Virus record (IMG/VR): IMGVR_UViG_3300011952_000007
DNA length: 11,564 bases
Direction: 5' to 3' (one strand)
Origin: a virus
Taxonomy: Duplodnaviria > Heunggongvirae > Uroviricota > Caudoviricetes
Of the stretch, positions 4,641-9,615 are shown piece after piece; within the stretch, counting starts at the first letter, position 1, and each line of letters opens with the position of its first letter. The position numbers were made by a program, and so were the translations under genes. A model generated the notes under the pieces. That model ran no database searches, had not been told where the DNA came from, and saw only the letters and a list, made by a program, of their open reading frames with translations.

Positions 4641-5061
4641 GCCGCTTCCCTCTGCCCATCAAGCTGATCCGCCAGATCCCAGCGCGCTATAATTGCCATT
4701 GCCTCGCGCCGGTAGGAATACATCAGTTCTTCGCACTCAGGGCTNNNNNNNNNNNNNNNNNNNNNNNNNNNNNNNNNNNNNNNNNNNNNNNNNNNNNNNN
4801 NNNNNNNNNNNNNNNNNNNNNNNNNNNNNNNNNNNNGTAGGAATCCATCAGTTCTTCGAACTCAGGGCTGTCTTTAGCAGCCTCCAGCACTTCCTGACGA
4901 ACGCCTTTGCCTGTTACAACGTCGAAAGTTGAGGACAGTTGATGAAGTCGGATGCTCTCAATCAGTTCAACTTGTCGGTCATATAGCTGTTCTGACAGGC
5001 GGTAGTCCTTGTCGAATGCCAGCATGATTTTTTGAAGATTTTTCTGCTGATTAACGTTCAT
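4637..5061 (-). CDS. Hypothetical protein immediately upstream of recE (interrupted by 92-nt N run; may be one gene or two tandem paralogs)
   Basis: N-terminal part MNVNQQKNLQKIMLAFDKDYRLSEQ...SPEFEELMDSY starts at ATG 5061-5059 behind GGGAGGG. A separate frame after the gap reads ...SPECEELMYSYRREAMAIIARWDLADQLDGQREAA and ends with TGA 4639-4637 overlapping the recE ATG. The two visible parts are in different frames if the gap is literally 92 nt. Confidence 0.45.
4712..4869. repeat. 33-bp near-identical direct repeat flanking the N run (4712-4744 and 4837-4869)
   Basis: gtaggaatacatcagttcttcgcactcagggct versus gtaggaatccatcagttcttcgaactcagggct: 31/33 identical, offset 125 bp, both within coding sequence (SPECEELMYSY / SPEFEELMDSY). 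Confidence 0.8.
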
Positions 5062-5325: not shown

Positions 5326-5349
5326 AAAAAAGCCGCCATGAGGCGGCTT
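5326..5349 (-). terminator. Intrinsic terminator after the repressor gene
   Basis: Minus strand AAGCCGCC-tcat-GGCGGCTT (8-bp stem) followed by TTTTTT (plus-strand A run 5326-5331); 20 nt downstream of the repressor stop. Confidence 0.65.
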
Positions 5350-5369: not shown

Positions 5370-5954
5370 TTATTGTTTGCTTCTTTCGTTCTGGCTGATG
5401 ACAAATTCAATGTAACTTTCGATCTTTGCCTTCTCTGTTTCGGGTAACAATGCGTAGCGCGAGCGGTCATAGTTGATAGTCGCAGGGTCGTGCGGGTGAA
5501 TCAGTAATTCATAGCCGTGACGCCCGAATGCGGATGCAACATTCTCCAGGGTGGAAATGGAAACGCTGACTTCATTGTTTAACAGGCGGCTGATTGTCAC
5601 CTGGGCGACGCCGGATGCGCGGTGTAGTTTTCCCTGCGTTGAAAGGTCGCGGCTTTCGCTCATCCAGCGTTCCAGGTTGTGAGCCGCCAGCTGACCAATG
5701 TCGCTTGGGCCGACAGGCTGAAACCCCTCCTGAGAAAGCGAGCGATCGATATCAAGCCAGTTACGGGGTTTATTGGCGGCAGCTTCAATTTTTCGCGCAA
5801 CCTGGTCGCCGATAACCTTCTTGCCAAGAGCCCAGCGGTTTACCAGATTTGCCTGAGTTCCAAGTTTTTCTGCCATCCGCGTCTGAACACCATTGAATTC
5901 ACGGTCGATCAAGTCGTTGAGATTTTGCCTGCGGACGTCCTGGATACTTTTCAT
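5370..5954 (-). CDS. Prophage repressor with two HTH domains, CI-like in position but lacking an S24 peptidase domain
   Basis: Two XRE-type HTH-like segments (QTRMAEKLGTQANLVNRWALGKK and LHRASGVAQVTISRLLNNEVSVSISTLENVA). No S24 signature could be seen. Sits divergent from the Cro-like gene with operators between. Weak Shine-Dalgarno before the start. Confidence 0.7.
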   Translation of the reverse strand: MKSIQDVRRQNLNDLIDREFNGVQTRMAEKLGTQANLVNRWALGKKVIGDQVARKIEAAANKPRNWLDIDRSLSQEGFQPVGPSDIGQLAAHNLERWMSESRDLSTQGKLHRASGVAQVTISRLLNNEVSVSISTLENVASAFGRHGYELLIHPHDPATINYDRSRYALLPETEKAKIESYIEFVISQNERSKQ

Positions 5955-6008: not shown

Positions 6009-6025
6009 ATTACCCAACAGGTAAA
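6009..6025. promoter_or_regulatory. Operator OR-a (ATTACC-caaca-GGTAAa)
   Basis: Inverted repeat in the divergent control region. Confidence 0.6.
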
Positions 6026-6047: not shown

Positions 6048-6076
6048 TTGATTTTTGTTACCTTATGGGTGAATAT
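6048..6076 (+). promoter_or_regulatory. Rightward early promoter (pR-like)
   Basis: -35 TTGATT (6048-6053), 17-nt spacer, -10 GAATAT (6071-6076), 33 nt upstream of the Cro-like ATG. Confidence 0.55.
6057..6072. promoter_or_regulatory. Operator OR-c (TTACC-ttatg-GGTga)
   Basis: Overlaps the spacer and -10 of the pR-like promoter. Confidence 0.5.
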
Positions 6077-6108
6077 TTATTATCTGAAATAAATATCAGG
6101 CAATAGCT

Positions 6109-6339
6109 ATGAGCGATAACGGACATTTCGATTTCAAAAAGCACTGGCTTGCACTTACTCCGGATGAGCGTGAAGCCTTCGCACAGGAAGCCGGAACGAC
6201 GAGTCACTATATCCAGACTCACTTAACAGGTAAGCGCAAAATGCCAGGTAAAGTATTGATGAATGGGCTTTTTAAAGCCTGCAAAACAAGACAATGGCTG
6301 CGCTCAAAAGCAGAACTGGCATACTTCTTCTACTCATGA
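6109..6339 (+). CDS. Cro-like HTH DNA-binding regulator (76 aa)
   Basis: Divergent from the repressor and first gene after the pR-like promoter. HTH-like segment EREAFAQEAGTTSHYIQTHLTGKRKMPGKVL. Family assignment is from position and motif only. Confidence 0.55.
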   Translation: MSDNGHFDFKKHWLALTPDEREAFAQEAGTTSHYIQTHLTGKRKMPGKVLMNGLFKACKTRQWLRSKAELAYFFYS

Positions 6340-6360
6340 TATCCAGCTACAACCCTCTGT

Positions 6361-6384
6361 AGACCGCCACCCGGCGGTCTTTTC
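6361..6384 (+). terminator. Intrinsic terminator after the Cro-like gene (tR1-like position)
   Basis: AGACCGCC-accc-GGCGGTCT perfect 8-bp stem followed by TTTT. Confidence 0.6.
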
Positions 6385-7511: not shown

Positions 7512-8321
7512 GTACGATCGCTTACGTGAGCATGGTGTTGCTGTGCATGAAGAGCGGCGTGACAGCAATGGCAAAAAGGAGCAGGTCGCTAGAATTTTCA
7601 ATGAACTATTTGTCCAGTTACAGGCTGCATTTCCCGCAAGCGTTTCGACCATAAGGGAGCAGAACAAACTTAATGAATTCCGTAAGCAATGGATGCTTGC
7701 GTTTCTGGAGAATGGGATCACTACAATGGAACAGGTTAACGCTGGTATGCGCCACGCCCGCGCCAGTGAGTCTCCGTTCTGGCCGTCGCCAGGGCAATTC
7801 ATCAAGTGGTGTAAAGACAGCAAGATGGTTCTTGGCGTCACCATTGACGATGTGATGGCAGAGTTTCACCGGTACAGCAAGGAAAAAAGTTTATATCCTG
7901 GTGGTCCCGAANNNNNNNNNNCGTTTCTGGCCGCCTGCGCCAGCTGCGCGTCGGTGACCTGATCGGCGTAGCTGCCAAACGCCCCTACCGCGTTGCTGTA
8001 GTTAAGCGCCAGCTTAGCGAGATTGAGGTTGAGAAACACGCGCGCAGGCTGCTCGATGATTGGGCGAAAAAGGTGGCTTCCGGACAGCAGATACCCGATC
8101 CGGTGATCAGCATACAGGCAAAGCCAGAACCCATGAGTACGCCTCCGGACACAGGGAGAGACGTTTACCATCCACCAGGGCGAAGTTTCGGGTGCATGCC
8201 TAACGCCGCCACCCTTGGGGGAATAACACCGGCGCAGTGGCTGATGGAGGAATACAGGCGGGGGAAGGCCGGAGGAGTTATTAAGAAAGGCAGGTTTTAT
8301 CAAGTAATACCAGCGCGATAG
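7483..8321 (+). CDS. Lambda P-like replication protein, helicase loader (interrupted by N run 7912-7921)
   Basis: KEQVARIFNELFVQLQAAFPASVSTIREQNKLNEFRKQWMLAFLENGITTMEQVNAGMRHARASESPFWPSPGQFIKWC matches lambda P as recalled (QVAQIINGVFSQLLATFPASLANRDQNEVNEIRRQWVLAFRENGITTMEQVNAGMRVARRQNRPFLPSPGQFVAWC). After the gap an open frame continues to TAG 8319-8321 and contains GQQIPDPV (lambda P GEAIPEPV). Confidence 0.75.
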
Positions 8322-8333: not shown

Positions 8334-8343
8334 CGTCTCGATA

Positions 8344-8360
8344 ATTACCTGTGAGGTAAT
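8344..8360. promoter_or_regulatory. Operator O3-2 (ATTACC-tgtga-GGTAAT)
   Basis: Perfect 6-bp arms, 18 bp upstream of -35 TTGATT. Confidence 0.6.
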
Positions 8361-8378
8361 AAAATATTCTAAACTCTA

Positions 8379-8407
8379 TTGATTTCGTGTCTTATGTGGT
8401 TTTTAAT
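8379..8407 (+). promoter_or_regulatory. Repressor-controlled internal promoter upstream of the ead/nin-like block
   Basis: -35 TTGATT (8379-8384), 17-nt spacer, -10 TTTAAT (8402-8407), flanked by operators O3-2 and O3-1. Confidence 0.5.
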
Positions 8408-8422
8408 TACCTCAGGGGTAAA
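8406..8422. promoter_or_regulatory. Operator O3-1 (ATTACC-tcagg-GGTAAa)
   Basis: Overlaps the -10 and the Shine-Dalgarno of the gene at 8425; centred 62 bp from O3-2, the same spacing as OL-1/OL-2. Confidence 0.6.
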
Positions 8423-9379: not shown

Positions 9380-9615
9380 GCATCCGAACTGAACATGGAT
9401 TTGGTCCGTCAACGGTCGAAGTCGAATGGCTTGATGATTGCCCTAAGTGCCAGCACGGCAAAGCCAAGGTAACAGGATGGTCGGTAACCAAAGATTCTTT
9501 GAGGGCGGGTGATGAGGCCGTCTGTTCCAAATGCGGTCACANNNNNNNNNNCGAAATCGATGCTGATGGAGAGAATGCCTGGGTGGAATGGGACGAAATC
9601 GAGGAGGCACAATGA
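9376..9615 (+). CDS. Zinc-ribbon protein (CPKC ... CSKC), interrupted by N run 9542-9551
   Basis: Two CxxC pairs (DCPKCQHG and VCSKCGH). AAGGAG Shine-Dalgarno 7 nt before ATG 9376. ATGA overlap with the next gene at 9612-9615. Confidence 0.55.
   Translation: MSIRTEHGFGPSTVEVEWLDDCPKCQHGKAKVTGWSVTKDSLRAGDEAVCSKCGHXXXXEIDADGENAWVEWDEIEEAQ

Follow-up and report, generated by a model that had tools for sequence, protein, structure and literature searches.

The gene at positions 5370–5954 on the minus strand of the analyzed window (the whole stretch of DNA considered here, 11,564 nucleotides long) very probably encodes a three-module, non-cleaving lysogeny repressor, Rep, that is switched off by the product of a distant, LexA-gated antirepressor gene, ant. 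Judged by its sequence, rep is the lysogeny-maintenance repressor gene of an E. coli prophage of the Uetakevirus group (epsilon15/phiV10/SPC32H-like) and a member of the SPC32H-type Rep family. The homology and domain content of the protein, the absence of an S24 peptidase, the operators, the synteny, and the position of ant with its LexA box in genomes that carry an identical Rep were established directly; repressor activity, antirepression, and stoichiometry are taken from the literature on phages SPC32H (through citing papers and PDB titles) and ZX5. By analogy with that literature, we infer that the SPC32H-type induction steps operate in the window prophage as well.

Several independent searches converge on the identity of the protein. 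A phmmer search of the PDB aligned Rep residues 1–190 with chain A of entry 5D50, named “Repressor” (E = 4.5e-42), in a structure titled “Rep-Ant complex from Salmonella-temperate phage”; the Rep C-terminal fragment in entry 5D4Z was also matched. Entry 5D50 is the SPC32H Rep–Ant complex, and 5D4Z is the tetramer formed by residues 92–198 of SPC32H Rep. BLASTP gave 42% identity to SPC32H Rep (E = 2e-53), distributed unevenly over the modules described below (DNA-binding domain, 55%; middle module, 32%; C-terminal module, 43%), and the repressor of epsilon15 is likewise 42% identical by tblastn. Much closer relatives are found in E. coli phages: tblastn against phage genomes recovered repressors with 98.5–99% identity in phiV10, TL-2011b, vB_EcoP_ZX5, and others. 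The window Rep itself is identical to WP_000836296.1, encoded by strains M21816 and APEC E19035, and the rep DNA of the latter is 100% identical to that of the window. Among 5426 complete E. coli genomes, 537 carry rep at a nucleotide identity of at least 95%. The assigned start codon is supported by an alignment of 29 homologs (52–87% identical), in which M1-K2-S3-I4 is invariant. ORF21 of ZX5 differs from the window Rep at three residues, all of them C-terminal, and when it was overexpressed no free phage remained and the transcripts for holin and endolysin fell by over 99.9% (PMC9782041).

The window as a whole covers the early genes of a Uetakevirus prophage. They encode, in order, an integrase C-terminus, an MT-A70 methylase, a DndB-like/DGQHR protein, PerC, AlpA/Xis, RecT, and a PD-(D/E)XK exonuclease; these are followed by two small ORFs, rep, the cro-like gene, a gp40 homolog, DnaT-like and lambda-P-like genes, DUF1064, and Eae/Ead-like genes. 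Gene order from the integrase to the replication genes agrees with that of phiV10, epsilon15, and SPC32H, and the best overall match of the window is E. coli strain M21816 (99.2% identity over 85%). Transcribed divergently from the cro-like gene, rep has the RecE/RecT module on one side and the DnaT/P replication module on the other. Weak, sub-threshold matches of the protein to the YdaS_toxin, HigA, and RstR models could be read to mean that the gene encodes some other XRE-type regulator, or an antitoxin, rather than an immunity repressor. All of these matches, however, fall far below the curated cut-offs, and no toxin gene was found adjoining rep; the gene occupies the canonical place of a repressor, divergent from the cro-like gene and between recombination and replication modules; the flanking promoters carry palindromic operator motifs; and a protein 98.5% identical to it, with three differing residues, has experimental repressor activity. 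We consider such an assignment very improbable, and treat rep below as the immunity repressor gene. The window also contains runs of N at 318–327, 1434–1443, 7912–7921, and 9542–9551 (10 nt each) and at 4745–4836 (92 nt), which truncate or blur the ORFs for the DndB-like/DGQHR, gp36-like, and lambda-P-like replication proteins, a 90-aa ORF, and a DUF1382-like ORF near int.

The original prediction described two XRE-like HTH segments in the protein, a feature already recorded for this repressor in the GenBank note of phiV10. Both segments are real by Pfam, but the second serves as a dimerization module, and a third, C-terminal module follows it. Pfam HTH_3 matches Rep in two stretches (E = 1.2e-9), the better of which, residues 106–147, also attracts the HTH_26 and LacI-type HTH matches. 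HTH-type matches in the N-terminal part are weaker (YdaS at 21–61, E = 3e-4 by Pfam; HigA at 24–71, E = 1.2e-3), and a scan against NCBIfam returned only sub-threshold matches to RstR, HigA, and TreR. The AlphaFold2 model, for which the family alignment served as input, contains only helices, in blocks at residues 4–60 and 83–193 joined by a disordered linker at 62–83 (mean pLDDT 71.6); this monomer model does not form the beta strands of the last module, and its pLDDT falls below 50 at residues 157–166. Foldseek placed 5D50 and 5D4Z at the top of its PDB matches for the model, followed by XRE-type HTH proteins. Pfam, the model, and Foldseek together give an N-terminal HTH DNA-binding domain, a flexible linker, an HTH-like dimerization domain, and a C-terminal module. 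The predicted recognition helix spans residues 35–43 (motif NLVNRW), and within the 29-homolog alignment N36, R40, and W41 are invariant in this helix, as are Y162, L170, and F184 in the C-terminal module. The two HTH-like modules are not recent duplicates, because the N- and C-terminal halves of Rep give no BLASTP alignment with each other. In SPC32H Rep, DNA binding is assigned to the N-terminal domain, dimerization to the middle domain, and tetramerization and Ant binding to the C-terminal domain (CAD/TetDloop; PMC9986798). By analogy with that protein, the second “HTH” of the window Rep is the middle dimerization module, and its last approximately 40 residues constitute the third.

The original prediction also held that the repressor has no visible autocleavage domain, and here every approach concurred. 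S24 peptidases have an all-beta fold. Peptidase_S24 gave no match to Rep in Pfam even at E ≤ 1, and no S24 family appeared among the precomputed Pfam domains of 86 Rep homologs (0/86). Profile–profile comparison of the Rep family with lambda CI (hhalign) gave an alignment of 22 HTH columns, with a probability of 7%, that left the C-terminal domain of CI entirely unmatched; no beta structure is present in the AlphaFold2 model; and no S24 peptidase fold was found among the Foldseek PDB matches. The Rep sequence also contains no Ala-Gly or Cys-Gly dipeptide. Lacking the peptidase domain, Rep is therefore not expected to cleave itself upon RecA activation, and its sequence supports a non-cleavable repressor, presumably inactivated by an antirepressor encoded outside the window. 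The contrary proposal, of a LexA/CI-type autocleavable repressor with an S24 domain diverged too far for detection, found no support, the similarity to lambda CI being limited to the 22 HTH columns. Against it stand not only the empty Pfam searches of Rep (E ≤ 1) and of its 86 homologs, but also the all-alpha model, fold matches consisting only of Rep and XRE HTH proteins, a crystallized homolog that spans the whole length of the protein, and the missing Ala-Gly/Cys-Gly site; it is effectively refuted, and we assign it next to no probability. Membership of the ImmR/ImmA or DdrO/IrrE class was also considered and rejected for want of an adjacent COG2856/M78 metalloprotease gene: the neighbors of rep encode 50-aa and 117-aa proteins and the cro-like protein, none of the ImmA/IrrE type, and no M78 protease was found in the scanned window ORFs or the annotated sister prophages.

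That a non-cleavable Rep would be inactivated by a factor encoded outside the window is well supported, in agreement with the original prediction. Within the window there is no Ant homolog (best tblastn E = 0.2), no antirepressor or Bro-N domain among the other ORFs in PHROGs and Pfam scans, and no exact LexA box; a search for CTGT-N8-ACAG gave two matches with one mismatch, fewer than expected by chance. The window ends approximately 22 kb short of the ant locus, and the evidence for ant comes from the sister genomes M21816 and APEC E19035 and from phage records. Both of these sister genomes, which carry an identical Rep, have ant with a LexA box. The ant gene of APEC E19035 (L007:35710-35967) lies 27.4 kb from rep, behind the near-consensus LexA box TACTGTATAAATATACAGTT; that of M21816 (locus L003) stands beside the tailspike gene with its own LexA box, in the same arrangement. 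In phiV10, gp24 (phiV10p24, 85 aa, annotated as hypothetical) matches chain E of 5D50, “Anti-repressor protein” (E = 2.9e-46); its gene is located just upstream of the tailspike gene and is preceded by CTGTATAAATACACAG. LexA boxes precede ant in phiV10, M21816, APEC E19035, and SPC32H alike. The Ant proteins of APEC E19035 and SPC32H are 88% identical, and their promoters share one layout: a Rep-type palindrome, the LexA box, the Shine–Dalgarno sequence, and the ATG.

Of the 37 phage records with a Rep homolog, 35 also have an Ant homolog; among the 5426 E. coli genomes, 529 contain ant together with its promoter, versus 537 for rep. These small discrepancies—eight more genomes with rep than with ant, two phage records with a Rep homolog and no Ant match—together with the location of the ant locus beyond the window would accommodate the loss of ant or of its LexA box from the window prophage, which would then be either non-inducible or induced only in trans by the antirepressor of another prophage. 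Yet both complete genomes inspected with an identical Rep carry an intact ant and LexA box, and we consider such a loss very unlikely. For SPC32H itself, one paper, citing Kim & Ryu 2013, states that Ant is made when LexA is cleaved during the SOS response (PMC7380047), and three papers describe the inactivation of Rep by LexA-controlled Ant through protein–protein interaction (PMC7380047, PMC9638917, PMC9986798). SPC32H Rep is described as binding DNA as a tetramer, with Ant acting on the C-terminal modules and dismantling the tetramer instead of competing for the DNA-binding surface (PMC9638917). Although only 42% identical to the crystallized protein (43% in the C-terminal module), the window Rep would by analogy bind Ant in the same manner.

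Predicted operators of Rep are clear in the window. Five exact copies of TTACC-N5-GGTAA occur in the window, versus none in 200 shuffles, and with up to two mismatches allowed the count is 15, where 3.1 are expected; five exact and three near matches make up the operator set (Table 1). The OR sites at 6010, 6027, and 6058 lie in the intergenic region between rep and the cro-like gene, and two further pairs (5236/5298 and 8345/8407) are spaced exactly 62 bp apart, start to start. This spacing is conserved in phiV10, epsilon15, and SPC32H, although neither the flanks nor the central 5 bp are; the TTACC/GGTAA half-sites and spacings recur in all three phages, and the epsilon15 record annotates TTACC-N5-GGTAA sites as repressor sites. 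The Rep tetramer most likely binds the 15-bp palindromes, and the separation of paired sites by about six helical turns would suit a tetramer that spans both of them along the same face of the DNA.

Table 1. Features of the immunity region and associated promoters, terminators, and predicted operators (window coordinates)
Feature	Position	Strand	Basis or remarks
Predicted operator OL-1, TTACCGTTGAGGTAA	5236–5250		Exact motif; abuts −10 of leftward early promoter
Promoter-like TTGACA-17-AATTAT, leftward early	5278–5250	−	Downstream of rep terminator
Predicted operator OL-2, TTACCCATAAGGTAA	5298–5312		62 bp from OL-1, upstream of −35
Intrinsic terminator downstream of rep	5330–5349	−	AAGCCGCC-TCAT-GGCGGCTT followed by TTTTATT
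rep, immunity repressor, 194 aa	5370–5954	−	ORF, ATG to TAA; full-length match to PDB 5D50_A; RefSeq WP_000836296.1
Rep residues ~153–194, C-terminal tetramerization/Ant-docking module (CAD/TetDloop)	5373–5498	−	Alignment with 5D50/5D4Z to residue 190; boundaries inferred
Rep residues ~84–152, HTH_3-like middle dimerization domain (MDD)	5499–5705	−	Pfam HTH_3; 5D4Z match; role according to PMC9986798
Rep residues 1–62, N-terminal HTH DNA-binding domain	5769–5954	−	Model helices 24–31 and 35–43; 55% identical to SPC32H DNA-binding domain
Predicted operator OR-a, TTACCCAACAGGTAA	6010–6024		Equal position in epsilon15 and SPC32H
Predicted operator OR-b, GCACCTCATAGGTAA	6027–6041		Two mismatches; equivalent in epsilon15/SPC32H perfect, 17 bp from OR-a
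Promoter-like TTGTTA-17-TATTAT, rightward	6055–6083	+	
Predicted operator OR-c, TTACCTTATGGGTGA	6058–6072		Overlaps −35 and spacer of rightward promoter
cro-like gene, 76 aa, epsilon15 gp39 homolog	6109–6339	+	phrog_35, transcription regulation, E = 5.6e-13; synteny with phiV10p41 and SPC32H_042
Terminator after cro-like gene	6361–6380		
Operator-like site GTACCTCAAAGGTAA	6395–6409		After cro-like terminator, ahead of replication genes; conserved in phiV10, M21816 (L003), and APEC E19035 (L007)
Predicted operator	8345–8359		In spacer of promoter-like TCGATA-16-TAAAAT (8338–8365)
Predicted operator	8407–8421		62 bp downstream of the 8345 site, just before DUF1064 gene start (8425)

Taken together with the SPC32H literature, these features point to the following probable switch. 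In the lysogen, a Rep tetramer would occupy three operators at the rightward promoter and two at the leftward early promoter, the latter separated by 62 bp, and would also act at two or more further promoters in the window. The antirepressor gene, encoding an 85-aa Ant, would lie beside the tailspike gene, approximately 27 kb from rep in the integrated prophage. DNA damage would lead to the cleavage of LexA and thereby to Ant synthesis from a promoter with a near-consensus LexA box; an Ant tetramer would bind the C-terminal parts of two Rep dimers and cause the Rep tetramer to disassemble; and the release of Rep from its operators would permit lytic transcription.

The essentials of this scheme are already known from related phages. 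The Rep–Ant lytic switch of SPC32H was reportedly described by Kim and Ryu in 2013 (J Virol) and by Kim and colleagues in 2016 (PNAS); the repressor family, its structure, and LexA-gated antirepression of the SPC32H type have thus been in print since those years, and experiments on a near-identical E. coli allele followed in 2022. The window prophage resembles SPC32H in the full-length homology of Rep (42%), in the Ant of its sister genomes (88% identical), in the gene order from int to the replication genes, and in its operators, which share the TTACC/GGTAA half-sites and spacings of 17 and approximately 30 bp at OR and 62 bp at OL. It differs in its host, E. coli instead of Salmonella, and in the divergence of Rep, most of all in the dimerization module (32%); further, SPC32H has no counterpart of the Bro-N protein, Ant-like at its C-terminus, that the E. 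coli relatives encode. With phiV10, TL-2011b, and ZX5, the likeness is closer still (Rep 98.5–99% identical, and integration on the guaA side in relatives). With respect to rep there is essentially no difference from phiV10 and ZX5, but the DndB-like/DGQHR gene found in the window and in SPC32H is missing from both.

The earlier suggestion of Gifsy-type or 186-type control captured the logic; the family is that of SPC32H Rep–Ant. Repressor–antirepressor pairs of Gifsy-1/3 and Fels-2 were reportedly described by Lemire and colleagues in 2011. With Gifsy and 186 CI–Tum control, the present system would share a repressor without a peptidase, a distant LexA-repressed antirepressor gene, and inactivation by protein–protein binding. 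However, the Rep searches returned only Uetakevirus and XRE-type matches, with no significant match to a family or record bearing the name of the Gifsy or 186 repressors. Rep and Ant are therefore best described as analogous in logic to the Gifsy and 186 proteins, with homology not demonstrated, a separation that is drawn by the names of the search matches. With lambda CI and LexA, Rep shares an N-terminal HTH domain and, in the case of its gene, a position divergent from a cro-like gene; multiple OL and OR operators and cooperative higher-order binding are further points of likeness. It differs from them in having no S24 domain, cleavage site, or Ser/Lys dyad, and in receiving its SOS input via a separate, LexA-controlled protein.

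The value of these observations as discovery is small, and their practical value lies in annotation. Prophages of this type are present in approximately 10% of complete E. coli genomes, and RefSeq labels their Rep a “helix-turn-helix domain-containing protein” and their Ant a “hypothetical protein,” despite the existence of crystal structures (5D50). Ant has no Pfam or NCBIfam family. With these labels, and without a model for Ant, automated pipelines therefore miss the antirepressor-based SOS inducibility of these prophages.

The translation start of rep had been described as having a weak Shine–Dalgarno sequence reminiscent of a leaderless cI transcript from PRM, two points that fared differently. 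The weakness is borne out: a single GAGG precedes rep, its end separated from the ATG by 14 nt and thus too distant for the optimum, and the computed anti-Shine–Dalgarno pairing of −5.6 kcal/mol is modest and badly placed. It is not, however, distinctive of rep, because the neighboring cro-like gene fares no better. In this phage, the comparison with leaderless cI is unsupported, since no −10-like hexamer was seen within 4–8 nt of the rep ATG; a promoter scan likewise gave no promoter on the minus strand in the intergenic region that separates rep from the cro-like gene. Epsilon15 and SPC32H differ in this respect, with a TACAAT hexamer 4 nt upstream of the rep ATG that is absent from the window phage, and the position of this hexamer is compatible with a leaderless or near-leaderless rep mRNA in those two phages. 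A leftward promoter-like site, TCTACA-16-TATCAT, is located at 6336–6363 on the minus strand, at the 3′ end of the cro-like gene, and is identified by consensus match only; it could give rise to an antisense or establishment transcript towards rep, as does PRE in lambda.

The loci around ant in the sister genomes contain a further candidate regulator, outside the window. A Bro-N domain protein is encoded near ant in E. coli relatives (L003:8903-9613 in M21816; L007:33873-34559 in APEC E19035; and L006:1078-1773, which is ORF4 of ZX5). The C-terminal approximately 75 aa of this protein are 42% identical to the small Ant (E ~1e-15), and its gene is flanked by Rep-operator motifs; no LexA box was found at the gene. 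The phiV10 Bro-N gene has its Ant-like part divided between two reading frames. The “anti-repressor” tested in the ZX5 study was this Bro-N protein (ORF4), not the small Ant (PMC9782041). A perfect TTACC-N5-GGTAA also lies approximately 40 bp upstream of the ant LexA box (L007:36045-36059, L003:8239-8253, L004:1014-1028, and L002:2897-2911); L002 and L004 are the epsilon15 and SPC32H loci, such that E. coli and Salmonella relatives together carry the palindrome upstream of ant. Its position suggests dual control of ant by LexA and Rep, or control of a divergent tailspike promoter.

It is possible, though we think it unlikely, that the Bro-N protein is the sole or an additional inactivator of Rep in E. 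coli Uetakeviruses—a self-amplifying second antirepressor, perhaps controlled by Rep and not by LexA. The resemblance of its C-terminus to Ant (42% identity) and the presence of Rep-operator motifs without a LexA box would agree with such a role, as would the finding that overexpression of ZX5 ORF4 cut the prophage titre approximately 1000-fold and rep mRNA by 75% (PMC9782041). SPC32H and epsilon15, however, have no Bro-N gene and still use the small Ant; the Ant-like part is interrupted by the frame split in phiV10; and the small ant gene and its LexA box are conserved in approximately 529 E. coli genomes. The small, LexA-gated Ant remains our preferred inactivator. The two proteins could also be combined in a two-stage circuit, in which LexA-gated Ant would derepress the Bro-N::Ant-like fusion through its Rep operators to form a self-amplifying switch, with the Rep operator at ant adding positive feedback; we regard this arrangement, too, as speculative and improbable on balance. 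The Ant-like domain of the Bro-N protein, its flanking operators, and the operator upstream of ant may nonetheless hint at a feed-forward layer in the switch, and these observations, all outside the window, are the only mildly new ones.

Two additional features bear on the wider biology of these prophages. An MT-A70 adenine methyltransferase gene adjoins the gene for the DndB-like/DGQHR protein (PF14072, E = 7.8e-39) at 451–2205 on the minus strand of the window; the pair is shared with SPC32H and missing from phiV10 and ZX5, and may constitute a variable accessory module with a possible function in defense or anti-defense. The sister prophages with an identical Rep encode an endosialidase-type tailspike (L003:5015-8134 in M21816; L007:36164-39283 in APEC E19035) and occur in K1 or APEC strains, where the insertion site is flanked by guaA and yfgI. 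The combination of this tailspike with K1/APEC hosts suggests a Uetakevirus lineage specific to the K1 capsule.
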